Source: Candidatus Multivoradales bacterium
GTDB taxonomy: Bacteria > Acidobacteriota > Thermoanaerobaculia > Multivoradales > J023
DNA length: 64,000 bases
Direction of reading: 5' to 3'
NCBI GenBank assembly: GCA_965248925.1
Contig: CBDFLE010000006.1
Location: forward strand, 1,920,001-1,984,000
The position numbers and the translations under genes were made by a program. The notes below the pieces were generated by a model that ran no database searches, was not told where the DNA came from, and was given only the letters and a program-made list of their open reading frames with translations. Position 1 is the first letter of the stretch, and the number at the start of each line of letters is the position of its first letter. Shown here one piece after another: positions 21,204-63,196 of this stretch.

Positions 21204-21638
21204 TTGAGCACTGCTCGAGCCTTCGAATACCGCCATGTGGTGGGTTTCGAAGAAACTAATTTGGTCGGCAATGTCTACTACGCCAACCACATTCGCTGGC
21301 AAGGCAGGTGCCGCGAGATGTTCCTGCGCGCTCACTGCCCGGAGATCCTCGAACAAATGAACCAGGGACTCGCCCTGGTGACCGTGCGCTGCGGCTGCGA
21401 ATATTTCGCCGAGCTGCTGCCCTTCGATGAGGTCTTGATCCGCATGCGCCTGGGTGAGGTGGTACAAAACCGCGTCACCATGCTCTACGAATACCTCCGC
21501 GTGGGACCTCTCGGCGAAGAACTGGTAGCCCGCGGCGAGCAGCAGATCGCCTGCATGCAGCGCGCCGAGGAGCGCGCCGTTCCCACCCCAGTGCCCCACG
21601 CGCTGCGTGCGGCGCTCGAACCCTTCAGAGCATCGTGA
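21204..21638 (+). CDS. Enediyne-type hotdog thioesterase (SgcE10/CalE7-like)
   Basis: FEYRHVVGFEETNLVGNVYYANHIRWQGRCREMFL and ARGEQQIACM match the PksE-associated TE signature. Confidence 0.9.
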   Translation: MSTARAFEYRHVVGFEETNLVGNVYYANHIRWQGRCREMFLRAHCPEILEQMNQGLALVTVRCGCEYFAELLPFDEVLIRMRLGEVVQNRVTMLYEYLRVGPLGEELVARGEQQIACMQRAEERAVPTPVPHALRAALEPFRAS

Positions 21639-24600
21639 GCTACCGCCAGACAGTCCGCCGCCAACGGCTGCCGCCAGCCCTCATGCTGCTGAGCTTGCTA
21701 CTGGGCCTGTTACTGAGCACTGATTGTGGCACTCCGGCCGCCGACCCCCCTGGCAACGACTTCGTGCGAGCGATGAACCTGGGCAAGGCCCTGCTGGAGA
21801 ACAAAGACTCCAAGGGCGCCATCGACCAGCTCACCCAGGCCGTCAGTCTCGACCCTGATTCGACCGCGGCGCGGCGCAACCTGGCCCGCGCCCTGCTACT
21901 GGCGCGCGACTCCGAAGGGGCATTGGCAAGTCTCGGCAGGGCCGCCGAGTTGGACGACGAAAATGCCTCGACCAGCTACTTGAAAGGCATCAGCCTGGCG
22001 CGGCTGGGACGTTTCGAGGAAGCTCTGCCACATTTCGAACGGGCAGTCCAGCTAGACCCCAAGACCGCAGCCCTACGCTACCAACTGGCCAGCGCCTACC
22101 AATCGACCGCGCGCCATCAGCAGGCGGGCGAGCAGCTGGTAGCCACCCTAGAACTCGATCCCCTGCACGGCAGCGCCCATTTCCTGTTGGCCAGCTATGC
22201 CCGCGGCAACGGCGACCGCCAAGCGCAAGCTCTACATCAAGGGGAAGTGCGACGACTGCGGCAGCTCTTGGGCGAGCAAAACCGCTCGGCCGAGGCGCTC
22301 GAGTCTTGCTTCCACACTTTGCCGGAAGGGGTGGCCGAGCACAGCGATGAAGCCGGCGAATGGCGGCCACGGCTGATCCCGGCTAGCGATATCTGGCTGA
22401 CCGACGACAGCGCCTCGGAACTCGCCACACGGGCTCGGGCCGCCACCGTCTTCGAAGTCGACAAGGACGGCCGGGCGATCGTCTTCGTCGCCACTGATGA
22501 CGGCCGCGCCTTCCTGCTCACCGCCGCCTCGTCCGGCCCGGTGGTGCATGCGCTGGCGCTGCCGCTGCCAGATCTTGGGAATCAAGTGCAGGCGCTCGGC
22601 GGCAATTTTCACGACGTAGTCACCGCGGGCAAACCCTACGATCCGCGACTCCACGCCCACGGCGACCTGCTGCTACTCGGCGCCGAGCGCTCGGTGCTCT
22701 TGGCCGGCGGTGGCGACGGCGAATTCGAAGATCTCACCCAGAGCGCCGGACTAGTGGGGGTCGGCGGCCGGCGTGCCCGCTGGCTGGACATCGAGCACGA
22801 CGGCGACATCGACCTGGCCATCGCCGGCCCCGCCGGGCTGGCAATCTGGCAGAACAACGGCGATCGCACCTTTCGCCAGGTCAGCGCGGAAATCGGCCTC
22901 GAAGACCCCAACCCGGCCAGCGATCTGGCAGCGGTGGACTTCGACGACGATGTGGCCATCGACCTGGTGGTGGCCCACGCCACCACCCCGAGCCAAGTAT
23001 TCGACAACCAGCGCACCGGCTCCTACGCTCGCCGCAGTGCCCCCGCCGGCCCCTGGCCCAGCGCCCGGCTGGTAGCTCTGGACGATGTCGACGGCGACTC
23101 CCACGCCGACGCCGTGTTAGTGAGTGAGCAACACCTGGTGATCGTGCCCGGACGCGGGGGCGACCGTCAGCAGCTCGACTTCACCGACTTCGCAGCGACC
23201 GCGCTACGGCTGACCGACCTCGACAACGACGGCACTCTGGAGATTCTCCTCGCCGGTCACACCGGCAGCGGCCATGAATCTGCAACCACAGGACGCCTGA
23301 AGCTGTGGCGCCGCGTCCACGGCAGCTGGCAGTCCCTCGGCCCGGTCGCTGGCCTCGACACCCTGGAGCTACCACCGATCCAGCACCTGCTGAGCGCCGA
23401 CCTGGATCTCGATGGCGACAGCGATCTACTGCTGGTCACCGACGATGGCTTGCGCTTGCTGCGCAACGAAGGCGGCAATGCCGCGGCCCAACTCAAGCTG
23501 CGCCTGGTGGGCGGCAAGTCAAATCCCGATGGCCTTGGAGTCGGCCTCGAACTACGCCGCGGGAGGCAGCGGATCAACCGCACGGTCGCTGAGCTGCCGA
23601 TCGTGATCGGTCTCGGCACCACCACCGATGGCGCCACCCCGACCCTCGACTCCTTGCAGGTGACCTGGTCCAACGGCGTGGTCGACAATCAACTCGACAT
23701 TGCCGCCGGCGCGGTCACCGTGGTGGAGAAAAATGTCGCCACCGGCTCCTGTCCGTTCCTCTATGCCTGGGATGGCGAGGGTTACCGCTTCGTCACCGAC
23801 CTGCTGGGCAACTCGCCGGTGGGTCTGCAGATCCGCCGCGGCGTCCCCCTCGACGCCGACCGTGACGAGTACGTCGAGATCGGGCCGGCGAGCAACTGGC
23901 CCGCCCGCGACGGCGAATTGCTGCTCATGGTGACTGAGGAAATGCGCGAGGTTCTTTACCTTGATCAGGTGCGAGTGGTGGCGGTGGATCATCCACCGGG
24001 GGTCGAAGTCCACCCCAACGACAAGCTGCGTCCAGCCCCCTTTCCCCCTTCCGAACTCGTGCCGCTAGGCGACCTGCGAACCGCCCGCCGGGTCGACAGC
24101 AGCGACGGCCTCGACCGCCGTGCCGCCTTGAGCGCCATCGACGGCACGTTTGCCCCCCCGGGCATAGCGTTGCCACCGCCCTTGCGCGGCGTCACCCAGC
24201 CCCTCTCACTAACCCTCGCTTTTGGCCCCCTCGAAACGTCGAAGCCGCTGATCCTGGCCCTGACCGGCTGGCTACAATACGGCGACGCCAGCACCAACAT
24301 CGCTCTCTCCCAAGCCGCCAGTTCCGCCGCCCTGCCGCCGCGGCTCGAAGTCGAGACCGCCGCTGGCGACTGGCAACAAGTTGCCGTCGTGGTCGGCGTA
24401 CCGGCCGGCAAGACCAAGACCATCCTGGTCGATCTCAGCGGCCAGCTGCCGCGCGGCGCCAGGCGGCTGCGGCTTAGCAGCAGCTTGGAAATTCGTTGGG
24501 ATCGCATCGCTCTTGGTCAACGCCTGCCGCTGAGCATCCTCACGCGGACAGTGATCGATCCGGTTCGCGCCGACTTCGCCTGGCGTGGTTTCTCCGCGAT

Positions 24601-24997
24601 GGCCAGCCGGGCTCCCGAACATCCCTCCACCCCGGCCTTCGCCGAACTGCTCAACCAGCCACCCTGGCGCCACTCCCCGAGCGGCTGGGCCACCGCCTAC
24701 GGCGATGTGCTCGACCTGCTGACCCGTGCTGAACATGGCCTGGTGATCGTCGCCGGTGGCGACGCCATCGAACTCGCCTTCCCCACCTCAACCCTACCGC
24801 CCCGGTTCCAAGGCGGCCAACGAACGTATTTCTTCTACTCGATAGGTTGGGACAAAGACGGCGACCACAACGTCATCGACGGCGACCGCGTCGGCCCACT
24901 GCCGATCGAGCTGGCCGCTAGCGACCCCACCTGGCAGCGAGCCACCCGGCGCACCGGTGGAGTGGCCGAACCAGAGGCTTCTAGGGGCGGCAGATGA
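21635..24997 (+). CDS. Exported TPR + FG-GAP/VCBS + ASPIC/UnbV-like protein with a large C-terminal domain
   Basis: Signal or lipoprotein-like N-terminus, TPRs, DxDxDGDxD repeats, SNPDGLG..., SCPFLYAWDG domain; GTGA overlap with the TE gene. Confidence 0.85.
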   Translation: MSYRQTVRRQRLPPALMLLSLLLGLLLSTDCGTPAADPPGNDFVRAMNLGKALLENKDSKGAIDQLTQAVSLDPDSTAARRNLARALLLARDSEGALASLGRAAELDDENASTSYLKGISLARLGRFEEALPHFERAVQLDPKTAALRYQLASAYQSTARHQQAGEQLVATLELDPLHGSAHFLLASYARGNGDRQAQALHQGEVRRLRQLLGEQNRSAEALESCFHTLPEGVAEHSDEAGEWRPRLIPASDIWLTDDSASELATRARAATVFEVDKDGRAIVFVATDDGRAFLLTAASSGPVVHALALPLPDLGNQVQALGGNFHDVVTAGKPYDPRLHAHGDLLLLGAERSVLLAGGGDGEFEDLTQSAGLVGVGGRRARWLDIEHDGDIDLAIAGPAGLAIWQNNGDRTFRQVSAEIGLEDPNPASDLAAVDFDDDVAIDLVVAHATTPSQVFDNQRTGSYARRSAPAGPWPSARLVALDDVDGDSHADAVLVSEQHLVIVPGRGGDRQQLDFTDFAATALRLTDLDNDGTLEILLAGHTGSGHESATTGRLKLWRRVHGSWQSLGPVAGLDTLELPPIQHLLSADLDLDGDSDLLLVTDDGLRLLRNEGGNAAAQLKLRLVGGKSNPDGLGVGLELRRGRQRINRTVAELPIVIGLGTTTDGATPTLDSLQVTWSNGVVDNQLDIAAGAVTVVEKNVATGSCPFLYAWDGEGYRFVTDLLGNSPVGLQIRRGVPLDADRDEYVEIGPASNWPARDGELLLMVTEEMREVLYLDQVRVVAVDHPPGVEVHPNDKLRPAPFPPSELVPLGDLRTARRVDSSDGLDRRAALSAIDGTFAPPGIALPPPLRGVTQPLSLTLAFGPLETSKPLILALTGWLQYGDASTNIALSQAASSAALPPRLEVETAAGDWQQVAVVVGVPAGKTKTILVDLSGQLPRGARRLRLSSSLEIRWDRIALGQRLPLSILTRTVIDPVRADFAWRGFSAMASRAPEHPSTPAFAELLNQPPWRHSPSGWATAYGDVLDLLTRAEHGLVIVAGGDAIELAFPTSTLPPRFQGGQRTYFFYSIGWDKDGDHNVIDGDRVGPLPIELAASDPTWQRATRRTGGVAEPEASRGGR

Positions 24998-25381
24998 TCA
25001 GAGGGAAGGATTCAGACCCGCCAACGAATCGAACCGTTGCCAGAAGAATCTGACAGGTTCTTCCTCGACCTCGAACACCGCAGATTGGCGCCACTTTTCG
25101 CAAGCTGGAAGAAGCGGCAACGACCACCCACATCCTAGACTACTCACCGAGCTAGTTTTCCAGCGCCCGTAGTGCCGCAGCAGAGTACTCCAAAAAGTAA
25201 TACATCAAAGGTTTCAAAAGGCATCCGGGCCACACTCTGGACGGAGCCATGACCGACCTATTCCCACAGCGAAACAAGGAAGCCCGCGCTCGCGGCCCGC
25301 TTCGTCCCGCGCTACGATCGCCTTTCGACCTCGGCCTATTCAAGGCCACTCTTATGACAACCTAAAAAAAAGGAATTGAAG

Positions 25382-26277
25382 ATGTCTTTCAAATCAACTG
25401 TTAAGGTATGGATTACCCTCACTCTTCTGGTCTTGCTGGCTCTGCCAGCCATCGCCAGTGACTCAGTGATCTTCAGCGGTGTCGACCTGTGGAAAACACC
25501 GGGTGACGGCTCCACCTACTCCGACTTCAGCAAAGAGCCCATTCCCCCGGTTTCTTCTGCCCCGGCTCCAAGGCCTTCACCGGCCGCATCGTCTTCGAAG
25601 GGGCAGAACTCGCCACCAGCCCGGCGAAGGCACTCGGCAATACCGACACCATCGTCCAGCGGCTCGCCGATGCGACTTTCGACGGCTTTGGCGTCGCCCG
25701 CACGCCGATCCAGCTCAAGGCATTGGCGTTCAACAGCTTGGCGCCGGTGAAAACCAGCTGCGGCAGCTACAACGTCAAGGTCAGCTTGGCGGGCGAGCAG
25801 CCGATCACCGAGATGCTGATCATCCGCACCCGCGACGAGGGCGGCTTCTTCCTGTCGCCGATCCATGTCGTGGTGAAGATGAGTTTCTTGCCTGAGAACG
25901 CTGCCGGTGAGGTCGTCGAGATCGAGCGTGAACTCAAGTTCGCACCCAGCGGCAAAGCGCTGTGGAACAACCAGCCAGGGAGTGGCGGCATCCAGCAGAA
26001 AAGCACCGTCTACGTCGATTCCAACGGCGACGGCGAGACTGACCTTTGGGTTCCCGGAACCTCCAACTTCGCCGCCGGTTGGGGCGTAGCGGCCGGCAAA
26101 GGAACCGCTAACAACAAACAGCTCGCCGATGATGTGGTCATTGACGAAGGCGACAACGAAGGTTACGTGAACATCGGCGGTATCATCTACCACTGCGACG
26201 ACCCACCCGACTGCCATCACAGGCACGGCACCGTACCCGCAGATGACACCACCATCGGCAACGAGTTGCCTCAATAA
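25382..26277 (+). pseudogene. Secreted protein, paralog 1 of the 54006/55267 family; single -1 frameshift in the C5 tract at 25544-25548
   Basis: Signal peptide, GVDLWKT..DFS..IP; adding one base restores GFFCPG and continues into ORF 25723..26277 (PGTSNFAAGW). Confidence 0.8.
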
Positions 26278-26423: not shown

Positions 26424-26540
26424 TCAACCGGCGTCGTGGATCGGCAGCTCAGTATCGACCGGCGCTCGCAAGCCGCGCATCTTCTTGACCAAGGAGAGCG
26501 CCTCGGCATCGCTATTGATCTCTAGGCGGAGTTCGATGTT
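26424..26540 (-). repeat. Degenerate remnant of the UnbV/E4-TPR gene 3' end
   Basis: Translates NIELRLEINSDAEALSLVKKMRGLRAPVDTELPIHDAG*, versus ELERHLEIDSDDELLSFVKEKRSLQAPVDTDLSFYDSEGS* in 48561.. Confidence 0.8.
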
Positions 26541-27634: not shown

Positions 27635-30019
27635 CTATTCGTAGCGCAGGGTGGTCATCGGATCCAGGCCGGCGGCGAGGCGAGCCGGCAGGTAGCTCGC
27701 CACCAAGGCCACCAGCAGCAGTAAGACACTGACTGCGGCGGAGGTGAGTGGATCGGTCGAAGCAACGCCAAAGAGCAGGCCGACCAACAGGCGAGCCATG
27801 AAGAACGCGCCGACAAACCCAGCGGCCAAACCCGCCAGAGTCACCAGCAGACCGCGGCTGACCACCAGCCAGAGAACGTCCTGCCGAGCGGCTCCCAAGG
27901 CCATTCGCAAGCCGATCTCGCGGCGGCGTTGATGCACCGGGTAGGACAGCACGCCGTACAGCCCAAGCACCGTCAGACCGAGAGCGAAGGTGGCGAAAGC
28001 TGCCAGCAGCCAGGTACTGAAGCGGGGCTGGCCAAGAGCCTCGGCGACGGTCTGCTCCATGCTCTTGACATCGACCACCGGCAGGCTCGGATCGATCGCC
28101 TGGATGGCATCGGCCACCGGCTTGGCCAGGGCCAGCGGCTCGCTGGCCGTGCGCACCAACAGCTGGTGGCGAATCCATGGTCCTTGCAGGGTGGAGAAGT
28201 AGATCTCGGGTTGAACATCGCTTTCCAGGCCGCGAGTCTTGATGTCGCCGACCACGCCGATAACCCGCCACTTCTCCTGGGAGAAACGGCCGAAAGTGCC
28301 GAGCTCGATCTGGGCTAGCAAGTGCTCGCCGATCGGATCGGCACCGTTGAAGAACAGCCGTGCCCACTCCTGATTGACCAACACCACACCAGGTCGCTGG
28401 CTGTCGTCCTGCTCGGTGAAATCGCGACCGGTGATCAACGGCATGCCGAGGGTGGCGAAGAAACCTGGGCTGACCGGCCGTACCTGGGCGTAGCGTTTGA
28501 AGTCGCCCTCGACCGCCGCATGGCCTTCGATGTCGAATTCGCTGCCGACGCTCATCCCTCTGGCCAGCGGCAACGACACGCTGGTAGCAAACGAAATCAC
28601 TCCTGGGAGATTGCTGATGCGCTCCTCGAGCTGGCGATAAAAGCCAGTTGTGGACTCGATATTGGCCTGCCCCTCGGGCAGGGTCACCAGCAGGGTCAGC
28701 AAATTGGTGGTGCTGAATCCCGCCGGTTCGTTGCTCAGCTTGACCAAGCTGCGCATCAGTAGACCGGCACCGACTAGCAGCACCAAGGTGATCGCCACCT
28801 GCAAGAAAACGAACAGCCGCCGCAGCCACAGGCTACCGCTGGTGCCACGGCCCGCGGCTCGTAGCGCCAAGCCCGGGCTCAGCCGACGCCAACGCAACGC
28901 TGGCGCCAAGCCAAAGATCAGGCCAGACAGCAAAGTCAGACCACAAGCAAAGACTAGAGCCCGCGGATCGAGTCGTGTCTGTTCCAGACTATAAAGCTCG
29001 CTCGGTCCGAAGCGCATCAGCAAGCGCATCGCCACGGCGGCCAACGGCAAGCCGATAGCGCCACCGCAGACACTCAGGATCAGACTGTCGAGAAAAAAGA
29101 AGCGCGTCACCTGCGCGCGGTTGGCGCCCAAAGCTAGCCGCACCGCGACCTCGCCACGACGAGCCGTGGCCCGGGCCAACTGCAACACCGCCACGTTCAG
29201 GCAGGCGATGGCCAGCGCCAGCAGCAACAACACCTGGCGAAAGTCTTTCACCACGCTTTCGCGCAGTGGCACTACCCTGCTCAACAAATCGGTGTTGGTC
29301 TCCGGGTACTGCTCTGCCATGCGCTCCGCGATGACCGTCATTTCCGCCTGAGCTGCGGCTAGCGAGACGCCGTGCCCCAGCCGTCCGATCACTCGCAAAT
29401 ACCGGGTGGCGCGAGGGTAGGACTCCGGGCCGTCGAGGATCGGTCGCCAAGAGTCGGCCGGGTTGGCCAGCGGAAAGCTGAATTCGGCCGGCATCACACC
29501 GAGAACTTCGATCGGCAGACCGTCGATCAGTAGCTTGCGACCGATGATCTCCGGATCGGTGCCATAGCGCCGTTTCCACAACCCAGCGCTGAGGATCACG
29601 GTATCGAGGGTGCCGGAGCCATCGGAGTCGAATCCCCGGCCTAGCTGAGGCTCGGCACCGAGCAAATCGAACATCCCAGCGGTGACCACGGCAGACAGCA
29701 TGCGTTGTGCCTGATCGTTGCCGGTCAGGGTGTATTCCCAGGGATGATAGCCCTCGATAGCTGCGAACGAGGAACTCTGCTCGCGCCAGTCGCGCAGGTC
29801 GGCAAGGGATAGGGGAATGGTGCGCTTCGCCGGACTCGCCCACCACAACACCGACAGGCTGATGGAATCGCTGTAAGGCAGCGACCGCAGCAATGCACTG
29901 TTGACCACCGAGTAGATCGCCGTCGAGGCGCCGATACCCAGCGCCAGGGTGGACACCGTGATCAGCGTGAACGAGGGGTTGCGCAGCAGCCCTCGGCCAG
30001 CGAAACGGAGATCTTGCAA
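27635..30019 (-). CDS. ADOP-type duplicated MacB/FtsX ABC permease (orphan; 5' end possibly frameshifted)
   Basis: [30 protein letters not shown], two 'E(V/I)xxRxALGA' repeats, [10 protein letters not shown] end; no ATPase nearby. Confidence 0.9.
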
Positions 30020-30753: not shown

Positions 30754-30892
30754 TCGACCCGACGCTTGCAGGCTGCGCTTCTCTTTGACGAAGGAGAGCA
30801 GCTCGTCGTCGCCCTCGATTTGCAAGTGACGCTGGAGCTCCGGGGCGCCGGGGAAGCGTTCCAGGCCGCGGCGCCAGGCGCGGCGCACCTCT
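30754..30892 (-). repeat. Remnant of the UnbV/E4-TPR gene 3' end
   Basis: EVRRAWRRGLERFPGAPELQRHLQIEGDDELLSFVKEKRSLQA aligns with 37448-37585 and 48598-48735. Confidence 0.9.
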
Positions 30893-34780: not shown

Positions 34781-34884
34781 GAAGCCTTGGTTGATGAGTT
34801 TCTCTGGCCAATACCCTTTGCCAGATAGACTCACTCGCGTCTCATGGTACAAATGGTAGGGACCAGGCAAGAAGGGGCGGAACC

Positions 34885-41008: not shown

Positions 41009-47010
<6,002 letters not shown>

Positions 47011-51137: not shown

Positions 51138-51408
51138 GGTCGGTCTCCCGATTGCACCGCCACTGTGGCCTGGCGGTAAGTAGTCGCTAGGGTAGCCGCG
51201 GCTGGGCCTCTGCGGGCCAAGCCGAGACCACCTACTGAGTTGCTCTACTTGAAAAGGGAGTGTCGCCAGACGATCTTTATCCACCACCTACCGGCAATTT
51301 CCCCCCATCGGCGACAAAAATCCAAGACAATGACTCCGACTAGAACAAGGACTCCCTCGATCCTGGGAATCCGATGTTCAAGAACCTAGCGCTTGGGAAC
51401 TCAATACC

Positions 51409-53793: not shown

Positions 53794-54005
53794 GACGACC
53801 CCACCCAAAGCCTCCTCTTGAGGCTCTATCTTCCCTGCCGGGGGTCAAGGCGAGCCGCGGCTGACTCCGTTTAGAGCAGAGAAGGTAAGAGGTGTCCGGC
53901 CAACCGTTCTCGACTCGATCGAGAGTCCAGCGGAAGGCCCGTCGTCAAAGAGCTTTCGACCTTCGTCGAAACGCTCAAATCAATCCTCCCAGGAAGGAGA
54001 TCCTG

Positions 54006-54881
54006 ATGAAGAGAAGCTTCAAACTAGGTGTTCTGTGCCTTGTCGCAGCCACCCTCCTATTGATCGTCCCGGCCCAGGCACACGATGTCAACGCCGGCAT
54101 TGACTTGTGGAAGACGGTCGGCGCCAACAACGGTACCTACGTCGATTTCAGCTCGCAGAGCATCCCGCTGAACTTCTTCTGCGCCGGCTATGGCGGGTAC
54201 ACGGGAACGATCGCTCTCAAAGGTAAGGCGATTGCCGCCACCAAGAGCCTGCAGGGTGCCGACACCGTCATCGAGCGCACCACAGACGAAGACGTCAACG
54301 GCAACGCAAACATGATCGTTCGGGTGCTCTCGCTGCAAGGCAAGACGCAGTTCTCTGCCGGCGTGTGTGGCACTTCGCACACCGTCAAAGTAGGGCTCGA
54401 CCCGAGCCGCGTCCAGGACAACACCAACATCAACTTCGTCCATTCGGCCTCGACCGGCGGCGTTTTCAGCGCCACTATCTCGGTCAAGGGCGAAGTCGTG
54501 TTCACCGAGGTGGGCAGCGGTGTGGTACGTGCGATCTCCAACGACATCGTCATGCAGACCAGCAATGCTTGCTGGAATCACACCACCGGCAGCGGCGGCA
54601 TCACGGTCTCCGGCCCGGTGACCGTCGATACCACCTGTGACGGCATTCCCGACCTCACCTTGCCGGGCACTTCCAACTTCCACGCCGGTTGGTGCCCGCC
54701 GTCCGGTGGCAGTGGCCCGCCGACCGCGTCGACGATCAACCACACCGGTCCTCACCCGACCAAGCCACCGAAGAAGAAGTGCAGCATCCGGCCGGTCGAT
54801 GACTGGATTGGGATCGAGTTCGGCTTTGACGAGTTCGGCAAGGCGATCGCTATCGAGACCTGCCAGGTCTTGAACCAGTAG
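54006..54881 (+). CDS. Secreted protein, paralog 2
   Basis: AAGGAG RBS, signal peptide ending AQA, GIDLWKT, IPLNFFC, ACWNH, PGTSNFHAGWC, PKKKCSIRP. Confidence 0.85.
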   Translation: MKRSFKLGVLCLVAATLLLIVPAQAHDVNAGIDLWKTVGANNGTYVDFSSQSIPLNFFCAGYGGYTGTIALKGKAIAATKSLQGADTVIERTTDEDVNGNANMIVRVLSLQGKTQFSAGVCGTSHTVKVGLDPSRVQDNTNINFVHSASTGGVFSATISVKGEVVFTEVGSGVVRAISNDIVMQTSNACWNHTTGSGGITVSGPVTVDTTCDGIPDLTLPGTSNFHAGWCPPSGGSGPPTASTINHTGPHPTKPPKKKCSIRPVDDWIGIEFGFDEFGKAIAIETCQVLNQ

Positions 54882-55266
54882 AAATCCGACGGGGAGGCGG
54901 CATCTTGGTTTGCCGTCCACGAGCCGCCCCCCGCCGGAGGTAGGCATCGTTCCCGGGTTCTAGGTTGGTCGAGCTGATCGCGTCATCGGTGACGGACACC
55001 TCGATAACCAAGCCCCCGACGGGGCAGCTGACGTGCAGCTCTCCCAGCCGAGGCCCGGGGCCGATGGTTCTTATCTTAGCAATGAGGCAGCAGCCGGAGA
55101 GACCTCTCGCTGGTGGGCTGCTCAAGAGCCAGATGGGGTGCAATCTAGCCACGGTGAGGTCATCTCTATCGCGCTCGTCACAGTGGGCGAGCAGGCGAAG
55201 GCTGATCTCCGGCGAGCGCCGTTGTTGGCGACTCGCAAACCGCGGCTCTAACGTTTGGAGGAAAAC

Positions 55267-56190
55267 ATGTTTAGAAGTCATTCCCAGTCAATTCTGTGCC
55301 TCTGTGCCGCTCTCGTCTTGCTAGCGGTGCCAGCCGCGGCATCCAACGTCAACTCCGGCATCGACCTGTGGGTCACCGTTGCCAACGGCACCAGTGTCAA
55401 CTTTTCGGGTCAGGCCATCCCCGCCGGATTTTTCTGCGCCGGCTCGAATTCGTTCAGCGGCTCGATCTCGCTCAAGGGCAAGAACATCGCCGCCAACATG
55501 GGTCTGCAGGGAGCTGACACGATCCTCGAGCGGCCAGTGACCGCGGTGCTGGGTTCGGTAGCTACGGTTCCACTGGTCCTCAGGGTTCTATCGTTGCAGG
55601 ACGTGACACCGCATTCGGTTCCCGAGTGTGGATCGAGCTACGACGTCTTCGTACGGCTCAACCAGTCGATCAGCCAGCCGCAGGGCAGCATTACGATCAG
55701 CCATTCGATGGCCACCGGCGGTACTTTCAACTCGGTGCTACCGGTAGAGACCGAGGTGATCTTCACCAACACCGTGAGCGGTGATGTCAAGACGATCACC
55801 AACAGCACCGTCCTGACCACCACGACCGCTTGCTGGAACCACACTCCGGGCCCCGGCGGCATTGTCGTCAACGGCCCGGTGACCGTCGACAGTGACGGCG
55901 ACGGCATCATCGACCTCACCCTGCCGGGGACCTCGAACTTCGCCCCGGGCTGGTGTGCACCGGCCGGCGGTACTGGTAACCCGACCTTCAGCCCGCCGAC
56001 CCATCAGGCGCCGACTCACGCCCACAAGGTGAAGGCGCCGAAGAAGAAGTGCAGCATCCGGCCGATCGAGATCGATCTCACCGAGTTCGGCGACGAGCAG
56101 GTTGGTGGCAAGGCCACCAGCACGCAGATTGGCGAGATCGGCTTTGTCAACCTCATCGCTTGTGATGCGGTGGTGCTCAGCCCCAGGTAG
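55267..56190 (+). CDS. Secreted protein, paralog 3
   Basis: GGAGG RBS, signal peptide, GIDLWVT, IPAGFFC, ACWNH, DSDGDG, PGTSNFAPGWC, PKKKCSIRP. Confidence 0.85.
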   Translation: MFRSHSQSILCLCAALVLLAVPAAASNVNSGIDLWVTVANGTSVNFSGQAIPAGFFCAGSNSFSGSISLKGKNIAANMGLQGADTILERPVTAVLGSVATVPLVLRVLSLQDVTPHSVPECGSSYDVFVRLNQSISQPQGSITISHSMATGGTFNSVLPVETEVIFTNTVSGDVKTITNSTVLTTTTACWNHTPGPGGIVVNGPVTVDSDGDGIIDLTLPGTSNFAPGWCAPAGGTGNPTFSPPTHQAPTHAHKVKAPKKKCSIRPIEIDLTEFGDEQVGGKATSTQIGEIGFVNLIACDAVVLSPR

Positions 56191-56202: not shown

Positions 56203-56240
56203 GGCATCGTCCTTGCTCGACAGCGACACGGGACGATGCC
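56203..56240 (+). terminator. Stem-loop between paralog 3 and pksE copy 2 (attenuator or mRNA stabiliser)
   Basis: GGCATCGTCC / GGACGATGCC 10-bp stem; no strong U-tract. Confidence 0.5.
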
Positions 56241-56295
56241 CCCCTCTTGGGTGTCAAAACAGCGCACAAGGACTACCAGCGATAGGTCCTCAAAG

Positions 56296-59200
56296 ATGAA
56301 TCACAGCAGCCCAGCCATCGCCATCGTCGGCCTCGCCTGCCACTATCCCGACGCTCGCAATCCTCGCCAGCTGTGGGAAAACGCGCTCAGCCAGCGCCGT
56401 GCATTCCGCGCCATCCCGCCACAGCGCCTCGATCTCGAGGACTATGGCCGTCTGGTCAGTGACCAGGCCGACGGCACTTATGTCGCCGAGGCAGCGCTGC
56501 TCGATGGTTTTGAATTCGATCGGGTGAAGTTCCGCGTCAGCGGCAGCACCTATCGCAGCACCGACCTGGCCCATTGGCTGGCCCTCGATATCGCCTCACG
56601 TGCGCTCGCCGACGCCGGCTTCGCCAACGGCGATCGACTACCCCGCGACCGCGTCGGCGTCCTGGTGGGCAACACTCTGACCGGCGAATTCTCCCGCGCC
56701 CAGCAAATGCGTCTGCGCTGGCCTTACGTTCGCCGGCAGGTCGCCGCCGAGCTCGCCGCCGAAGGCTGGGACGAGCAACGAAGCAGTGCCTTTCTCGGCC
56801 GCTTGGAGCAGAACTACAAGGCACCCTTCCCAGCACCCACCGAAGACACTTTGGCCGGCGGCCTGGCGAACACCATCGCCGGCCGCATCTGCAACCACTT
56901 CGATCTCCACGGCGGCGGCTACACCGTCGATGGCGCTTGTGCTTCGTCCCTGCTGGCCACCGCTCAAGCCTGCACGGCACTAGCCAACGGCGACCTGGAG
57001 ATGGCTTTGGCCGGCGGCGTCGACCTCAGCCTGGATCCCTTCGAGCTGGTCGGATTTGCCCGCAACGGCGCCCTTTCGCCCGGCGAAATGTTGGTGTTCG
57101 ATCAACGATCCCAGGGTTTCTTGCCCGGCGAGGGCTGCGGCTTCGCAGTGCTAATGCGTCATCGCGATGCGTTGCACCAAGGCTTGCGAGTTTACGCCGT
57201 GATCCGTGGTTGGGGGATCTCCTCCGATGGCAGCGGCGGCATCACCCGGCCAGAGGTCGATGGCCAGGTATTGGCTCTGCAACGGGCCTACCAGCGGGCC
57301 GGTTTCGGTATCGACACCGTCGACTTGATCGAGGGGCACGGCACCGGCACGGCGGTCGGCGACACCACCGAACTCACCGCCCTCAACCGCGCCCGGCGCA
57401 ACTCTACCCCCGGTGAGGCCACGCCGCACCACGCTGCTGTGGGTTCGATCAAGGCCAACATCGGCCACACCAAAGCCGCCGCCGGCCTGGCCAGCTTGAT
57501 CAAAGCCAGCCTGGCGCTCGACTCTCAAGTGCTGCCACCGACCACCGGCTGCAAGCTGCCCCACACCCAGATCACCGGCCCCGCCTCAACCTTACGGACC
57601 TTGCGCCAACCCGAGCCCTGGCCTCTTGGGCGGCCGTTGCGTTGCGGGGTGAGCGCGATGGGTTTTGGCGGCATCAACAGCCATCTGGTGTTGGAGAGTG
57701 CCGAGCCGCCTCGGCGAACTTCGGGCCGGCGCATCGACAGCCGCTTCGGCCCCACCCCCCAAGACTGCGAGATGCTGCTCTTCGCCGGCGCGGATAGCGC
57801 GGAACTGAAACAGAAAGTCGAGCGAGTGAAAGTACGGGTGACCAGCCTGACCCACGCCGAACTCGGCGATTTGGCGGCCGAACTCGCCCGCCGGCTGCCG
57901 GCCGACGCCAACTACCGGTGCGCGCTGATCGCCGCCACTCCCAAGCAGCTGCAAGAGCGCCTCGGCAAGCTACGCCAGGCCCTCGACCACCCCTTGGCCC
58001 GCGGTGCCTCGCATCTCGACCCTGAGCATGGCCTGTTCCTCGGTCATGGCGGCCGCCCACCACGGATCGGCCTGCTCTTCCCTGGTCAGGGCTCGCCCGC
58101 CAGGCTCGGTGGAGGTTTATGGCGCCAACGCTTTGCCAGCGCCGCCGAGGTCTATGCCGGCAGCGACTTGCCCAGCGCCGGGGATGGAGTGGACACCGCC
58201 ATCGCTCAGCCTGCCATCGCCACCGCGGCACTGGCCGGCCTGGAGGTTCTGGACAGCCTCGGCGTCCACGCCACCACCGCCATCGGCCATAGCCTCGGCG
58301 AGCTGATCGCCCTCCAGTGGGCCGGCGCCTATGACAGCGCCGCTCTGCTGCGCTTGACTCATGCCCGCGGCCAGGCGATGGCCGAACTCGGTGAGGCCAC
58401 CGGCGCGATGGCCAGCCTGGGCGCCTCGGCGGCTGATGTGGCGCGGCTGATCGACCGCCTTGGGGTCGACAACCTGACCCTGGCCGGCCTCAACTCGCCG
58501 CGTCAAACGGTCATTTCGGGACCGGCGGAGCAAGTTGTCAACGCCCTCGAGCAGGCTGCCAAACAAGGTTGGCAGACCACCCGCTTGGCGGTTTCGCACG
58601 CCTTTCACTCACCCCTGGTGGCGGCCGCCGTGCCGCGCCTGGAAGAAGCCCTGGCGGCTGAGACTTGGGAGACGCCACGGCGAAGGGTGATCTCGACCAT
58701 CACTGGCCAAGTGCTCGATCCGCAAGCTACCCTAGCGCCGCTACTCGCCGCGCAGGTGACCTCGCCAGTACGATTCGTCGAGGCCTTGCAGCTCGCCGCC
58801 GAACACTGTGACGTGTTCCTAGAGGTCGGCCCTGGCGAAGTCTTGACTGGGCTAGCCAGGGCCACCGTCACCCAGCCGATCCTTGCCCTCGATGTCGGCG
58901 GACCGTCACTAGCCGGCCTACTGCAAGCTAGCGGCGCGCTGTGGGCTCTAGGAGCATCGATCCGGCCGGCGGTTCTGTTTGCCGATCGCTACCACCGGCC
59001 GTTGGACCTGGACCACCAACCCGCCCTGCTGAGCAATCCGTGCGAAGAGGCACCGCGACTGGGCGAAGCGCTGGCCAGAGCCACCCGGCCGCCCAACCCC
59101 CCAGCCTCCGACGACCCTGACCTTGCTCCACCGAGCCTCGCCACAACAGTCGTCAGCAGCGCGACCTCGCCCCTCGAAGTGGTCCACCAGTTGGTCTGTC

Positions 59201-62178
59201 AACGCACCGAGCTACCGATCTCCGCGGTGGACGCGGACAGCCGCATGCTGAGCGACTTGCACCTCAGCTCGATCACCGTCGGGGCACTGGTTTCCGAGGC
59301 CGCGCGGCAGCTCGAGTTGCCGCCGCCAGCGGCTCCCAACGAATACGCCAACGCCACCCTCGGCACCATCGCTCAAGCCTTCGAAGAGCAGCTCAAGAGC
59401 GGCGGCGGCGGGGGCAATACCGATCGCGACACCTTGCCTGCCGGGGTCGACCAGTGGGTCCGGGCGTTCACTGTCGAGCTGCTCGCCCGAGACCTCGAAC
59501 AACGCCCCAGCGAGATGCTCCAGGGCGGGTGGCAAGTGTTTGGCAGCGATCGACATGCACTGCGCGCGACCTTGCCTGAAGTCCTGGCGCAAGCCGCGCC
59601 GGGCGGCGGCATCGTGCTGCTGCTAGCAGTAGGCGATACCGACCGACAGCTCGATTTGATCCTCGAAGCGGCCCGTACCGGGCTCGACCTCGAGCGCTTC
59701 CTGCTGGTCCACCACGGCCACTCGGCGGCCGCAATGGCCCGTACCCTGCATCTCGAATCGCCCTCAACCGCGGTCGGGGTAATCTGTCTACCGGCCTTGC
59801 TCGGCACCGGCGAAGAAGAAGGATGGTGCCACCGGATCGCCGCCGAAGCCAAGGGCCTGAAGGGCTATCGCGAAGCCACCTACGACCTCGATGGGCAACG
59901 CTGGGAACCGCGCCTGCGGACTCTCTCCGAACCGCCCGGGCAGCAGTCCCAAGCCCCGCCCCTCGAAGCCGACGAGGTATTGGTGGTCAGTGGCGGCGGC
60001 AAAGGCATCGGCGCCGAATGTGCCCTCGCCCTGGCCCAAAGTTGGGGCGTGCGCTTGGCGATCCTCGGTCGCTCCGAACCCCAGCAAGACAGCGAACTGG
60101 CGGAGAACCTGCAACGTTTTGCCGCCCAAGGGGTCACCGCGCGCTACTTCGTCGCTGATGTCGGCGATGCCACCGCCGTGGCTCATGCCATCAGCGCCGC
60201 CAGAGCCGAGCTGGGGGAGATTCGCGGCCTGGTGCACAGTGCGGGCGCTAACCGTCCCCAACTACTGGCCAACCTGGGGCGAGCCGATGTCGAGGGTACC
60301 CTGGCGCCCAAAGTGGCCGGCCTCGACAACCTGCTGGCGGCGATCGACTGTGAATCACTCAAGTTGTTGGTCGGCTTCGGCTCGATCATTGCCCGCTCGG
60401 GAATGCCGGGAGAAGCCCACTACGCGCTGGCCAACGAACGCCTGCGGCGGCGACTCGAGGGCTTCGCTGAACTCTTCCCGGAATGCCGCAGCCTATGTGT
60501 TGAATGGTCGGTGTGGTCGGGAGTGGGCATGGGCGAGCGGCTGAGCCAGCTCGAAGCTCTGGCGCGCCAGGGCATCACACCGATTCCCCTCGCCGACGGG
60601 GTCGCCGCGCTGCTGCAGCTGCTCGAACGGCCGACGCCGGTGGCGGTGCTGGTGAGCAGCCGCTTCGGCGAACCGCCAACCCTCGAGATCGAACGACCAG
60701 AGATGCCGCTGCTGCGTTTCCTGGAACGCCGCCGGGTGCATGTCCCGGACGTCGAACTAGTGGTCGATTGTGCAATATCAGAAGACACCGACCCCTACCT
60801 GGCCGACCACATTTTCGACGGCGAGCGCCTGTTCCCAGCGGTGATGGGCTTAGAAGCCATGACTCAGGCTTGGACCGCGCTCACCGGCGGCAGCGGCCCA
60901 CCGCAGATCCGCGACATCCGCTTCGCTCACCCGATCACCGTTGCCAAGGGCAGCACCGCGCAACTGCGATTGGCGGCTTTGACCCGACCCGACGGTGCCA
61001 CCGAAGTAGTGCTGCGCAGCGCAGCGACCGGCTTTGCGGTCGATCACTTCCGCGCCATCTTCGAGCCCGTCGCGGACCCTGCTACCCAGGACGGGGCCGA
61101 CGACGACGTCAATGACCTCTGCGCCGTCGCCATGGCTGAAAGCCAGCTGCTACCCCTCGAACCCCAACGCGACCTCTACGGACCGGTGCTATTTCAACAA
61201 GGGATGTTCCAGCGTCTGCGCGGCTACCGCTGGCTACGTGCTCGCGCTTGCCTAGCCGAGGTCGAAGGCGACCCGCGGGCCCAGTGGTTCTCTACCTACC
61301 TACCGAGCGAGCTGCTGCTGGGCGACCCCGGCGCTCGCGACGCCACCATTCACGCTATCCAAGCCTGCATTCCCCACGCCACCGTACTGCCGGTAGCGCT
61401 CGCCAAGTTGGAACTCGGTGAAGCGCGGCTCGGCGAACGCCGGGTGTTCGGCGCCTGGGAGCGCCAGCGCAACGGAAAAACCCTGATCTACGATTTAGAG
61501 GTGCGCTACGCTGACGGCCGCTTGGCTGAAAGATGGAGGGGGTTGGAACTGCGGGTGGTCGATCAGGCTACTCAAGCTCCGCCCTTGGCAGAGCCGCTCC
61601 TAGGACCCTACTTGGAACGCCGCCTGGGCGATTTGCTGCCCGAGGCAGAGCTTTCAGTGGTGATAAATCGCGACCAGACACCGCAGGCAGAGCGCCGCCA
61701 ACGGAGCGATCAAGCGATCAAGCGCTTGGTCGGGGTGCGGCAGCAGATCTTCCGCCGTCCCGATGGCAAGCCCGAGCTGCCCAGCGGCCATCAGGTATCG
61801 ATTGCCCATGCGGGCGATCTGCTGATGGCGGTCAGCAGCTGTGGCCCGATCGGCTGCGATGTCGAAGCGGTGGCGGAGCGCTCCGAAGAACTGTGGAGTG
61901 ATCTGCTCGGAAAAGGAAGACTCCAACTCTTGCAACTGATGATGCGCAAGTACAGCGAAGATCGCGACCGCGCCGCGACCCGGCTGTGGACGGTGCTCGA
62001 GAGCCTCAAGAAAGCCGGCCGAGCGCCCGACGCGCCGTTGACCCTCGTCGACTCCAGCGAAGACGGCTGGCTGACTTTCGCTTCCGGCCGCCACTGGGCC
62101 GCCAGCGTGGTCATGCCGGCCACAGACGGCGGCCCGGCTACCGCCTTCGCCGTGTTGTCTGAGAGGCCAGAGTGTTGA
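56296..62178 (+). CDS. pksE: Enediyne-type iterative PKS PksE, copy 2
   Basis: Same domain order and intact motifs: VDGACASS, EGHGTGT, NIGHTK, GHSLGE, HAFHS, DLHLSSI, SGGGKGIG, DPYLADH, GCDVE..RLWT..ESLKKAG. Confidence 0.93.
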   Translation: MNHSSPAIAIVGLACHYPDARNPRQLWENALSQRRAFRAIPPQRLDLEDYGRLVSDQADGTYVAEAALLDGFEFDRVKFRVSGSTYRSTDLAHWLALDIASRALADAGFANGDRLPRDRVGVLVGNTLTGEFSRAQQMRLRWPYVRRQVAAELAAEGWDEQRSSAFLGRLEQNYKAPFPAPTEDTLAGGLANTIAGRICNHFDLHGGGYTVDGACASSLLATAQACTALANGDLEMALAGGVDLSLDPFELVGFARNGALSPGEMLVFDQRSQGFLPGEGCGFAVLMRHRDALHQGLRVYAVIRGWGISSDGSGGITRPEVDGQVLALQRAYQRAGFGIDTVDLIEGHGTGTAVGDTTELTALNRARRNSTPGEATPHHAAVGSIKANIGHTKAAAGLASLIKASLALDSQVLPPTTGCKLPHTQITGPASTLRTLRQPEPWPLGRPLRCGVSAMGFGGINSHLVLESAEPPRRTSGRRIDSRFGPTPQDCEMLLFAGADSAELKQKVERVKVRVTSLTHAELGDLAAELARRLPADANYRCALIAATPKQLQERLGKLRQALDHPLARGASHLDPEHGLFLGHGGRPPRIGLLFPGQGSPARLGGGLWRQRFASAAEVYAGSDLPSAGDGVDTAIAQPAIATAALAGLEVLDSLGVHATTAIGHSLGELIALQWAGAYDSAALLRLTHARGQAMAELGEATGAMASLGASAADVARLIDRLGVDNLTLAGLNSPRQTVISGPAEQVVNALEQAAKQGWQTTRLAVSHAFHSPLVAAAVPRLEEALAAETWETPRRRVISTITGQVLDPQATLAPLLAAQVTSPVRFVEALQLAAEHCDVFLEVGPGEVLTGLARATVTQPILALDVGGPSLAGLLQASGALWALGASIRPAVLFADRYHRPLDLDHQPALLSNPCEEAPRLGEALARATRPPNPPASDDPDLAPPSLATTVVSSATSPLEVVHQLVCQRTELPISAVDADSRMLSDLHLSSITVGALVSEAARQLELPPPAAPNEYANATLGTIAQAFEEQLKSGGGGGNTDRDTLPAGVDQWVRAFTVELLARDLEQRPSEMLQGGWQVFGSDRHALRATLPEVLAQAAPGGGIVLLLAVGDTDRQLDLILEAARTGLDLERFLLVHHGHSAAAMARTLHLESPSTAVGVICLPALLGTGEEEGWCHRIAAEAKGLKGYREATYDLDGQRWEPRLRTLSEPPGQQSQAPPLEADEVLVVSGGGKGIGAECALALAQSWGVRLAILGRSEPQQDSELAENLQRFAAQGVTARYFVADVGDATAVAHAISAARAELGEIRGLVHSAGANRPQLLANLGRADVEGTLAPKVAGLDNLLAAIDCESLKLLVGFGSIIARSGMPGEAHYALANERLRRRLEGFAELFPECRSLCVEWSVWSGVGMGERLSQLEALARQGITPIPLADGVAALLQLLERPTPVAVLVSSRFGEPPTLEIERPEMPLLRFLERRRVHVPDVELVVDCAISEDTDPYLADHIFDGERLFPAVMGLEAMTQAWTALTGGSGPPQIRDIRFAHPITVAKGSTAQLRLAALTRPDGATEVVLRSAATGFAVDHFRAIFEPVADPATQDGADDDVNDLCAVAMAESQLLPLEPQRDLYGPVLFQQGMFQRLRGYRWLRARACLAEVEGDPRAQWFSTYLPSELLLGDPGARDATIHAIQACIPHATVLPVALAKLELGEARLGERRVFGAWERQRNGKTLIYDLEVRYADGRLAERWRGLELRVVDQATQAPPLAEPLLGPYLERRLGDLLPEAELSVVINRDQTPQAERRQRSDQAIKRLVGVRQQIFRRPDGKPELPSGHQVSIAHAGDLLMAVSSCGPIGCDVEAVAERSEELWSDLLGKGRLQLLQLMMRKYSEDRDRAATRLWTVLESLKKAGRAPDAPLTLVDSSEDGWLTFASGRHWAASVVMPATDGGPATAFAVLSERPEC

Positions 62179-62236
62179 CTGAGAGACCCCAAGCCATCCC
62201 TGGCCAAGTCCACTGAACCGACGCCCAGGAGAATTT

Positions 62237-63196
62237 ATGAGCCGACTGACCCGCCGGCTACTCGGCCTCTCAGAACGCGAGGTGAACTTCGAACATCGCG
62301 GTTTCCGCGGCGGTACCCCTGCCATCCGCGAACACATCGAGACCATCGGCCGCAGCTTTCTCCAGGGCTATCACGCGGCCCTACTCGACCCACGACTCGA
62401 CCGACTAGTGCCCAGGTTGGAAGCTGCGCCCGAGAACCACCGCGGATTCGTCTTCGAGGGCGCGGCCTTGGCCTTGGCCATACTCGATACCCTGGTACCC
62501 GGCCGCCGCAATCGTCTCGGCCGGCTGCTCGCCGACCGCGGCGCCAACCACGTCTACATGGCCCACGTCGGCGCTGGCTGGGCTCTGGCCCGCCTACCCT
62601 TTGGCGGCGCGAGCTTGCTAGCCCGCCTCGACCCCACCCTGCGCTGGCTGGCCTACGACGGTTGGGGTTTTCACCAGGGCTTCTTTGTCTGGCACAAGGC
62701 TGTCGAAGGTCGGCAACAAATACCGCGCCGGGTCGCTAGCGGCTATGCCCGACGGGCTTTCGACCAGGGTCTCGGCCGCAGCTTGTGGTTCCTCGAAGGT
62801 ACCGAAGTAGCACGTATCCCACGGACCATCGCCAGCTTTGCCGACCACCGCCAGAACGATCTTTGGAGCGGTATCGGATTGGCCGCGGCCTACGCTGGCG
62901 GCGTCGACCGGGCGGCACTAGAAACCCTGCGCGCCGCCGCCCGCGGCTGCACCGCCGAGCTAGCCCAGGGAGCCGCCTTCGGCGCCGAAGCCCGCCAGCT
63001 CGCCGGCAATCTCGGCCCACACACTGAACTCGCCTGCCAGGTGCTGTGTGGGCGAGACGCCGCGACCGTGGTCGAAATTACCCGCCAAACCGGTTGCGAC
63101 CTACCGCCGGGATCCGAGGAGTTGCCCGACTACGAAATCTGGCGTCAGCGCCTGCGCCACGCCTTCTCAGACGAGGCCCGCAGCGCGGTGGCCTGA
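62237..63196 (+). CDS. DUF1702 family protein (E3/UnbL-like), copy B
   Basis: Paralog of 40037..41008 (GFVFEGA, HVYMAHVGAGW, FDQGLGRSLWF); follows pksE copy 2. Confidence 0.9.
   Translation: MSRLTRRLLGLSEREVNFEHRGFRGGTPAIREHIETIGRSFLQGYHAALLDPRLDRLVPRLEAAPENHRGFVFEGAALALAILDTLVPGRRNRLGRLLADRGANHVYMAHVGAGWALARLPFGGASLLARLDPTLRWLAYDGWGFHQGFFVWHKAVEGRQQIPRRVASGYARRAFDQGLGRSLWFLEGTEVARIPRTIASFADHRQNDLWSGIGLAAAYAGGVDRAALETLRAAARGCTAELAQGAAFGAEARQLAGNLGPHTELACQVLCGRDAATVVEITRQTGCDLPPGSEELPDYEIWRQRLRHAFSDEARSAVA

Follow-up and report, generated by a model that had tools for sequence, protein, structure and literature searches.

In enediyne biosynthesis, the iterative polyketide synthase PKSE and its thioesterase (TE) yield a C15 heptaene, and the proteins E3, E4 and E5 lead to a diiodotetrayne. 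As far as the available portions of the reports go, a five-gene cassette is common to all known enediyne clusters (PMC4480864), PKSE and TE alone give the heptaene (PMC4480864; PMC9992847), and the PKSE/TE product chemically complements a PKSE mutant, in support of a discrete polyene intermediate (PMC9992847). The same portions describe E3, E4 and E5 as enediyne-specific (PMC10760148), place 54 of the 61 cassettes known in 2014 in Actinomycetales, with four strains carrying two cassettes (PMC4480864), and state that PKSE-type ketosynthase (KS) domains are widespread outside Actinobacteria, with no product known (PMC10308959). The present work concerns a locus with two PKSE genes in a Candidatus Multivoradales bacterium, contained in a stretch of 64,000 nucleotides (the window, G000:C6:1920001-1984000) of a genome of 7.98 Mb in 6 contigs that is 96.9% complete. 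Each PKSE gene is paired here with an E3 gene, a single TE gene is present, and neither E5 nor an E4 orthologue was detected in the genome; on balance, we lean towards a reduced system of PKSE, E3 and TE whose polyene product is exported to the cell envelope. No description of cassettes devoid of E4 and E5, or of their linkage to an MMPL exporter, was found by full-text searches, supplements lying outside these searches and possibly noting such a variant.

The gene map was based on the listing of open reading frames (ORFs), Pfam and NCBIfam scans and PDB sequence searches, and plain coordinates are those of the window. The genes on which the argument depends are the following:

21204-21638, plus strand: E10-type hot-dog thioesterase (PF13279; PDB matches)
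21635-24997, plus strand: TPR and FG-GAP protein of 1120 aa (Pfam TPR, FG-GAP_3)
37366-40074, minus strand: ASPIC/FG-GAP-TPR protein UnbV1, probably a lipoprotein (PF13517, PF07593, TPR)
40037-41008, minus strand: E3a, a DUF1702 protein (PF08012, E 6e-112)
40996-47013, minus strand: PksE1, iterative enediyne-type polyketide synthase of 2005 aa (Pfam, KS tree, motif alignment)
47358-48239, minus strand: AraC-family regulator (PF12833, PF00165)
48561-51287, minus strand: UnbV2, ASPIC/FG-GAP-TPR protein with an LGGC lipobox (PF07593)
51409-53793, plus strand: MMPL/HAE3-type RND exporter (PF03176, Patched SSD)
53892-54881, plus strand: sec1, of an exported family with a predicted eight-stranded barrel, likely starting at the Met at 54006
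55255-56190, plus strand: sec2, of the same family as sec1, likely starting at 55267 (AlphaFold2, AF2, model)
56236-62178, plus strand: PksE2, second enediyne-type polyketide synthase, of 1980 aa (Pfam, KS tree, motif alignment)
62237-63196, plus strand: E3b, a DUF1702 protein (PF08012, E 4e-105)

A preliminary description of this DNA had listed two full-length PksE genes with intact catalytic motifs, two DUF1702 genes, one E10-type TE, an AraC regulator and an MMPL exporter. All of these were recovered: the synthases by Pfam and a motif alignment, the DUF1702 genes by the PF08012 matches given above, the TE by its similarity to CalE7, SgcE10 and DynE7, and the last two by Pfam/NCBIfam matches.

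Both synthases gave Pfam matches to KS, acyltransferase (AT), ketoreductase (KR) and dehydratase (DH) domains. They are 53% identical over their full length (1066/2007) and, in an alignment that included three other PKSEs, proved colinear with the PKSE of a Micromonospora E3-E4-E5-E-E10 locus. In PksE1 the domains follow the order KS-AT-ACP-KR-DH-PPTase, the AT region matches DynE8 (E 1e-55, PDB sequence search), and the PPTase region carries one insertion. The motifs DGACASS, HGTGT and GHTK (KS), GHSLGE (AT), AFHS and the LHLSS serine of the ACP are intact in both proteins, which also keep GGGKGIG and YALAN (KR) and the C-terminal PPTase motifs. In a quick IQ-TREE phylogeny of 67 KS rows, the 64 PKSE sequences, both window proteins among them, formed one clade apart from three modular KS of the same genome (SH-aLRT 100), which is the outcome that the preliminary description had looked for in such a tree. 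Within this clade PksE1 is sister to the sequence from genome G002 (99), and PksE1, PksE2, G002, G005 and locus L002 group together with weaker support (89). The TE gave PDB matches to CalE7 (E 2.9e-49), SgcE10 (4i4j; 3.7e-46) and DynE7 (1.8e-38) and is single-copy in the genome (one tblastn match); its stop (21638) is overlapped by the start (21635) of the TPR and FG-GAP gene.

Each PKSE gene is followed by a DUF1702/E3 gene, in the order PKSE-E3, and the start of E3a overlaps the end of PksE1 by 13 nt. E3a and E3b are 58% identical, no other DUF1702 gene exists in the genome, and in an alignment of 33 sequences both copies match every one of the 30 invariant columns. In the E3 tree, E3a, E3b and L002 fall in one clade (SH-aLRT 96). 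Judged by their placements in the E3 and KS trees, the pairs PksE1-E3a and PksE2-E3b are old paralogues within a family-level lineage lacking E4 and E5 rather than a recent tandem copy; the ASPIC gene alone has been duplicated or converted recently. Among 41 genomes, two DUF1702 matches were found elsewhere only in G002 and G039, and in neither genome do the matches belong to two PKSE-E3 pairs of a single locus. The PDB contains no sequence relative of E3. The AF2 model of E3a (pLDDT 93.1) is all-helical, and VIA-align returned only helical-repeat matches with Z of at most 7.0, which is the noise level for helical proteins, so no function follows from them. A DUF1702-like region (38-40% identical to E3) was also observed in a 905-aa open frame of G002 (L088:16748-19462, on G002:C29), 2-3 kb downstream of an ASPIC gene and near the PKSE-E3-TE set of that genome; it may be a fused E3 relative.

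The search for E5 could not rely on a Pfam model, since the Micromonospora E5 of locus L041 gave no Pfam match, and this protein was therefore used as a query. Searched by tblastn across 75 DUF1702 loci, it located an E5 (42-94% identical) immediately behind E4 in most loci; in the window genome, all that this query brought up was a match of 29% over 135 aa, on contig C5. A 51-sequence E5 profile run against the 73,914 six-frame ORFs of at least 60 aa in the whole genome yielded this same match alone, at 76.6 bits, compared with the 406-480 bits reached by true E5s unless cut by a contig end. The matched gene is an NQR2/RnfD/RnfE-family gene that adjoins a DUF2330 gene in housekeeping surroundings (G000:C5:1463072-1464304; L077:10096-11307). 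By this profile search, there is no E5 in the window or in the 97%-complete genome, and the earlier statement that no UnbU/E5-like gene is visible extends genome-wide. As an observation in its own right, E5 and the RnfD/NqrB family seem to be distantly related, because the E5 profile detects an NQR2/RnfD/RnfE protein.

As regards tailoring genes, the larger ORFs (about 140 aa or more) were scanned with Pfam from window position 3 to a point 18 kb beyond the window end, and no oxidoreductase, sugar gene or known resistance family emerged, in agreement with the preliminary description. Nor did a canonical E5 with a tailoring set, whose presence just outside the window would have spoken against that description, turn up within about 20 kb on either side.

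The question of E4 is linked to the ASPIC/FG-GAP proteins, three of which had been counted as UnbV-type, and to the lipoprotein E4 that had been proposed. Two of the three, UnbV1 and UnbV2, do carry PF07593 and are copies that match except at their ends (10 mismatches over 2453 nt, or 99.6% identity; 826 of 854 residues identical), the N-terminus of UnbV2 being unlike that of UnbV1 and bearing the LGGC lipobox. The third, encoded at 21635-24997, has TPR and FG-GAP matches in Pfam but no PF07593, and is not among the 30 PF07593 matches of the genome. It is 26% identical to UnbV1/UnbV2 over 240 aa, has an N-terminal hydrophobic segment, and possesses orthologues in G008/L002 (61%) and G002 (44%), both by a PKSE. 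UnbV1 lies directly downstream of E3a and is 61% identical to cluster-linked copies in G010 and G008, and UnbV2 is divergent from the MMPL gene. The depth of the 2.4-kb ASPIC repeat is about twice that of its flanks (32.2 versus 16.4 in X2 and 39.8 versus 22 in X4), which fits two ASPIC copies, although the short-read contigs used (four runs, one sample) break at the repeat ends and cannot alone prove copy order. The export signals of the ASPIC and secreted proteins were read by eye.

In a tree of 86 FG-GAP/ASPIC proteins (the 2 window copies, 20 paralogues from the genome and 64 proteins from the loci), the 57 E4 proteins linked to cassettes form a single clade without exception (SH-aLRT 100, branch length 1.26). 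UnbV1 and UnbV2 stand across that branch, with the generic ASPIC paralogues of the genome, in a subclade (100) that they share with the cluster-linked copies of G010 and G008/L002. True E4 queries score 186-201 bits against them, the best values in the genome, versus inter-E4 medians of 497-622 bits, and the identity of the two proteins is 44% to a paralogue at C6:4.267 Mb and no more than 34% to any E4. On the strength of this tree and these scores, UnbV1 and UnbV2 are not E4 orthologues and E4 is absent from the genome, so the notion of a lipoprotein E4 had to be abandoned. Three further observations concern this family. A 16-kb region (G000:C6:4254000-4270500) holds at least seven PF07593 matches, including the closest UnbV paralogues (44% and 39%); a 273-aa FG-GAP ORF to the right of the window (L001:365-1186), after a metzincin-like gene, could be an ASPIC remnant; and, at L015:17326-20878 and L037:401-1880, a non-canonical ASPIC gene (L015) or fragment (L037) lies by a distant E5-like gene (59 and 115 bits, respectively), which may represent a diverged E4/E5 pair linked to E3.

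The gene set of the window is not an isolated case. DUF1702 was found in 13 of the 41 genomes searched among relatives, own genome included, and in 6 of 23 other genomes of the family. The comparison was made over 87 units (75 named loci plus 12 from relatives, with L093, a duplicate of L002, and ten short duplicates left out, and two pairs of adjacent same-contig stretches merged), of which 51 hold E3 and a full-length PKSE. With flanks of 10 kb, beyond which some of the absences may lie, and with at least 35% identity over at least 400 aa required for an MMPL, 40 of these 51 units are E5-positive and 11 are E5-less. An UnbV/ASPIC gene is present in 40/40 E5-positive and 4/11 E5-less units, the TE in 33/40 and 11/11, and the MMPL in 1/40 and 5/11; ten of the E5-less units have no E5 match at all, and L037 has the weak 115-bit relative. 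Loci with E3, PKSE and TE and devoid of E4 and E5 occur in G002, G005, G008, G010, G025 and G036, and this form recurs in the same family, the same order and Planctomycetota. Whole-genome searches found no E5 in four of five kin genomes (G002, G005, G010 and G025; at most 37 bits).

The fullest counterpart is that of G010, from the same family, with two MMPL genes (54% each), an ASPIC-TPR protein (61% over 883 aa), AraC (53%), a sec gene (34%), E3, PKSE and TE; G008/L002 combines a TPR-FG-GAP protein (61%), an ASPIC-TPR protein (61%), PKSE-E3, MMPL and TE (72%). ORF clustering across the E5-less loci, which also produced many clusters of shadow ORFs, disclosed no shared family beyond E3, PKSE, TE, FG-GAP/ASPIC, MMPL and AraC. 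The recurrence of MMPL and of the secreted family by PKSE/E3 in other genomes bears out the linkage that the preliminary description had suggested looking for. What did not hold is its view of the non-actinomycete setting as special, given that the complete E3-E4-E5-E-E10 arrangement is frequent in Planctomycetota, Acidobacteriota, Gemmatimonadota, Verrucomicrobiota and Pseudomonadota. Two side observations belong here. At L103 (G008:C81:5500-25499), an E5 of G008 lies by a truncated ASPIC gene, half a MacB permease gene and a 650-aa PKSE fragment, which together resemble a second cassette that has been broken. The opposite division of the cassette is seen at L095 (G018:C22) and L099 (G039:C3:1082000-1101999), where E3-E4-E5 stand by an MMPL and discrete KS genes (25-32% identical to PKSE KS), with no PKSE.

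The exporter gene of the window matches PF03176 (90.8 bits, cut-off 20.5), PF02460 and PF12349; its match to TIGR00921 (E 2.4e-51, 174.7 bits) lies below the cut-off of 351.9, so that the assignment to the HAE3 subfamily is approximate. It is 42-54% identical to cassette-linked MMPLs elsewhere versus at most 29% to paralogues in its own genome, and an MMPL gene lies directly by E3 or PKSE in nine loci of several phyla (L002/G008, L006, L028, L035, L037, L056, G010, G025 and the window). In the window itself, MMPL, sec1, sec2, PksE2 and E3b follow one another on a single strand. The AraC regulator is likewise 53% identical to its orthologue by the G010 cassette, its own-genome paralogues reaching at most 39%, and over 64-103 aa only.

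The secreted family, for which three paralogous proteins had been described, consists in the window of two intact secreted paralogues, sec1 and sec2 (50-52% identical), and a third copy, sec3, that is frameshifted: its N-terminal part and its remainder lie in different frames, with the break near 25546-25552 (tblastn, translations and inspection of the DNA). No Pfam or NCBIfam match was obtained, and none by Pfam in 40 members; the 79 relatives found in a set of 5.8 billion proteins are all unnamed or "hypothetical", one having PF02412. In a protein atlas, unnamed Acidobacteriota clusters came out at 0.89-0.93 and DUF6073/DUF6004 clusters, as leads only, at 0.79-0.82. The genome has sec paralogues at four other places; elsewhere, sec genes abut E3 in L009, L017, L035 and G010 and follow the TE in L030. 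The AF2 model of sec2 (40-sequence alignment, pLDDT 85.6) is an eight-stranded beta-barrel. Foldseek found nothing in the PDB for this model at E <=0.001, and VIA-align, run against 48,161 chains with rows within 1 Z unit regarded as tied, placed DynF (6ubl_B) first (Z 10.7, root-mean-square deviation 3.1 A over 147 residues, 15% identity), the polyisoprenoid-binding YceI/TT1927b proteins being near Z 6. Because the sec sequences have AxA-type signal peptides (by eye), conserved cysteines and, after the barrel, a conserved Asp-rich and Cys/His tail, a soluble exported barrel is favoured over a membrane barrel.

DynF itself, according to the part of the report that was available, is a dimeric eight-stranded barrel with palmitate inside; its orthologue Sgd15 is essential and acts early in the pathway, binding of the PKSE polyene has been proposed, and DynF co-expressed with SgcE and DynE7 was not loaded with heptaene (PMC8725005). 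In four of five actinomycete genomes searched, one DUF6073 match per genome lies about 7-9 kb from the E3 locus, and one E3-linked DUF6073 gene is near-identical to DynF (E 2.9e-142).

These observations can be integrated in a model in which each PKSE, primed by its own PPTase domain, would build an ACP-bound conjugated polyene, which the TE would release by the known PKSE and TE chemistry. E3, a predicted cytoplasmic helical-repeat protein, might act on the polyene chain or chaperone it, and the cassette-specific MMPL/HAE3 protein would move the hydrophobic product out of the inner membrane. Outside the cytoplasm, the exported barrels sec1 and sec2 may bind the product and the ASPIC/FG-GAP-TPR lipoproteins may either act on it or fix it in the envelope; control of the locus would fall to AraC. 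Since the proposed pathway is a reduced one, devoid of E4 and E5, a polyene-type lipid that is secreted or placed in the envelope is a more likely end product than a 9- or 10-membered enediyne.

Several facts weigh against this proposal. The only TE gene is separated from PksE1 by 16 kb and from PksE2 by 35 kb, and the E3 model has no Foldseek match at E <=0.001, its fold thereby offering no functional hint. The same MMPL subfamily also adjoins cassettes that bear E4 and E5 (L028, L035 and L056); the exporter is therefore no substitute for E4 or E5, and the preliminary view of an export toolkit standing instead of E5 is too simple. In the structural comparison, outer-membrane barrels come next after DynF (NspA 9.8, OmpA 9.5, PagL 9.0) and DynF is tied with NspA and OmpA; a 40-sequence profile searched against the PDB (E up to 10) gave no sequence link between sec and DynF/DUF6073, and the secreted proteins could consequently be something else. 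In line with this, hhalign gave a probability of 0.1 for sec against a DynF orthologue. Moreover, the unit counts include kin and are not independent, G008, the closest syntenic relative, has an E5 of 470 bits on another contig, and the locus shows decay, in the form of the frameshift in sec3, the two remnants of ASPIC genes and the nonsense codon that interrupts the neighbouring sigma-54 activator gene.

It could be argued that an acetylenic or enediyne-type product is still made, an ASPIC-TPR protein replacing E4 and the MMPL or the RnfD-like gene replacing E5. The ASPIC-TPR genes are, after all, the best matches in the genome to true E4 queries (32-34%, about 190 bits), one of them stands right after E3a, and L015 and L037 pair non-canonical ASPIC sequences with E5-like genes; furthermore, the retention of E3 in 11/11 E5-less units suggests chemistry beyond that of PKSE and TE. 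We nevertheless regard such a replacement as improbable, because E4 and E5 are co-present and highly conserved in 40/40 canonical units, with E5 keeping 42-94% identity across phyla, the window ASPIC genes group with 20 generic paralogues of their own genome, the only E5-like gene lies in an unrelated neighbourhood on another contig, and any ASPIC gene is within reach in only 4/11 E5-less units. Somewhat less probable still is a polyene that stays in the cell or the inner membrane, for example as an antioxidant or pigment, with the MMPL, the barrels and the ASPIC proteins as unrelated neighbours. The absence of MMPL from the fetched flanks of 6/11 E5-less units, the presence of a sec gene in only 1/11, the abundance of ASPIC genes (30 PF07593 matches) and the scattered sec paralogues would agree with it. 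It is opposed by the MMPL forming a cassette-specific orthologue group set directly by E3/PKSE in nine loci of several phyla, by the sec genes that abut E3 in four loci, and by the five consecutive genes on one strand in the window.

The signs of decay lead to yet another explanation, namely that a canonical cassette has lost E4 and E5 and survives here only as a decaying or silent remnant whose pathway no longer works. To the frameshift, the two ASPIC 3' remnants and the in-frame TGA one may add IS21-type and DDE transposase genes 15-18 kb to the left, and the broken cassette of G008, with its E5 by a truncated ASPIC, MacB and PKSE pieces. This is a very unlikely account of a locus in which both PKSE genes have open frames of 6 kb, no checked catalytic motif is impaired and both E3 copies keep all their invariant columns, in which accessory genes are conserved at 42-72% identity, and whose set without E4 and E5 is found in at least six genomes of the family or order and in other phyla. 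A polyene exported to the envelope is the reading that we retain.

The remaining features of the locus, some of which bear on its history, are as follows:

about 25358-26112, plus strand: sec3, third copy of the secreted family, frameshifted (tblastn, two frames)
26436-26537, minus strand: 3'-terminal remnant of an ASPIC-TPR gene, matching UnbV1 aa 849-882 at 56% identity (repeat D3)
27635-30019, minus strand: MacB/FtsX-type permease, duplicated, membership uncertain (PF12704, PF02687)
30763-30891, minus strand: 3'-terminal remnant of an ASPIC-TPR gene, matching UnbV1 aa 831-873 at 84% identity (repeat D2)
30938-32293, minus strand: Arf-like GTPase
33491-37315, plus strand: response regulator-DUF4388, histidine kinase and split sigma-54 activator
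63411-64265, plus strand, running past the window end: exported protein with a HELGHxxGLxH zinc-protease-like motif, membership doubtful (translation)

The MacB-type permease is not claimed as a member of the system, as it has 21 paralogues in the genome with up to 39% identity; MacB-like genes do occur near cassettes in L016, G037, G039b and G025. The metzincin-like gene after E3b, whose product gave no Pfam match, is a doubtful member too, having no counterpart in any related locus. The sigma-54 response-regulator gene (35963-37315) is split by an in-frame TGA at 36683-36685, covered without difference by the short-read contigs from the four runs of the one sample; we take it to fall at the Gly before the Walker-B "TLxLDE" stretch of its relatives. 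In the flanks, Pfam scans of the larger ORFs (window 3-21599 and 18 kb right of the window) showed MoeA, an OmpA-family protein, IS21-type/DDE transposases, an AAA ATPase, regulators and an integrase fragment, together with an Indigoidine_A-family protein, a DUF1501/DUF1800 pair, GGDEF, an AAA-TPR regulator, a redoxin, two-component genes and MacB-type permeases. The mobile genes on the left (3215-7683 and 14368-14874) include an IS21-type pair (Mu-transposase C-terminal and IstB), DUF4372/DDE pieces and an rve_3 integrase fragment, and a 706-aa AAA_15/AAA_21 ATPase of a kind seen in defence systems is encoded at 7772-9892.

What E3, E4 and E5 do is the least understood part of enediyne biosynthesis, and a system in which nature has kept PKSE, E3 and TE alone sets the contribution of E3 apart. 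Such a system would further reveal a use of PKSE polyenes outside antibiotic producers, where PKSE-type genes are common, and the fold link between the sec2 model and DynF may hint at a carrier function for both. With E4 and E5 both lost genome-wide, a dedicated exporter that recurs and a predicted fold resembling that of DynF, the locus offers a good entry point for experiments. A broader and more speculative idea, which we put forward only tentatively, is that PKSE-E3-TE without E4 and E5 might be a self-standing and widespread Gram-negative-type pathway for an envelope polyene lipid, with a dedicated MMPL and exported DynF-like barrel carriers; the actinomycete warhead would then be a later elaboration by E4 and E5, and DynF a retained polyene carrier.

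Among the systems described, the metagenome survey of KS sequences shares with this work the finding of PKSE-type KS in many non-actinobacterial phyla; it classifies KS, and the portion available describes no loss of E4/E5 and no MMPL or barrel linkage (PMC10308959). With the actinomycete E3/E4/E5/E/E10 cassette (UnbL/UnbV/UnbU/PKSE/TE), the locus has in common the same six-domain PKSE, the E10-type TE and an E3 adjacent to the PKSE. It differs from that cassette in the lack of an E4 orthologue and of E5 from its genome, in the order PKSE then E3, in having two PKSE-E3 pairs and one distant TE, in the absence of tailoring, sugar and known resistance genes among the larger ORFs, and in its Gram-negative-type context, with sigma-54 activators, OmpA-family and outer-membrane barrel genes. 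DynF (PDB 6UBL, DUF6073) and the sec proteins are both encoded next to a PKSE; sec has no detectable sequence similarity to DynF and carries, in contrast to it, a signal peptide and the conserved Asp-rich, Cys/His C-terminal tail. In mycobacteria, lipid export by MmpL proteins is coupled to polyketide synthases, and Gram-negative bacteria have exporter-linked clusters for aryl-polyene pigments. The synthase in the present locus is an iterative PKSE, and homology to those systems is taken no further than the level of the MMPL superfamily; what they share, as an analogy of mechanism only, is a polyketide-type lipid synthase encoded next to an MMPL/RND-type exporter and the delivery, here proposed, of its product to the envelope.

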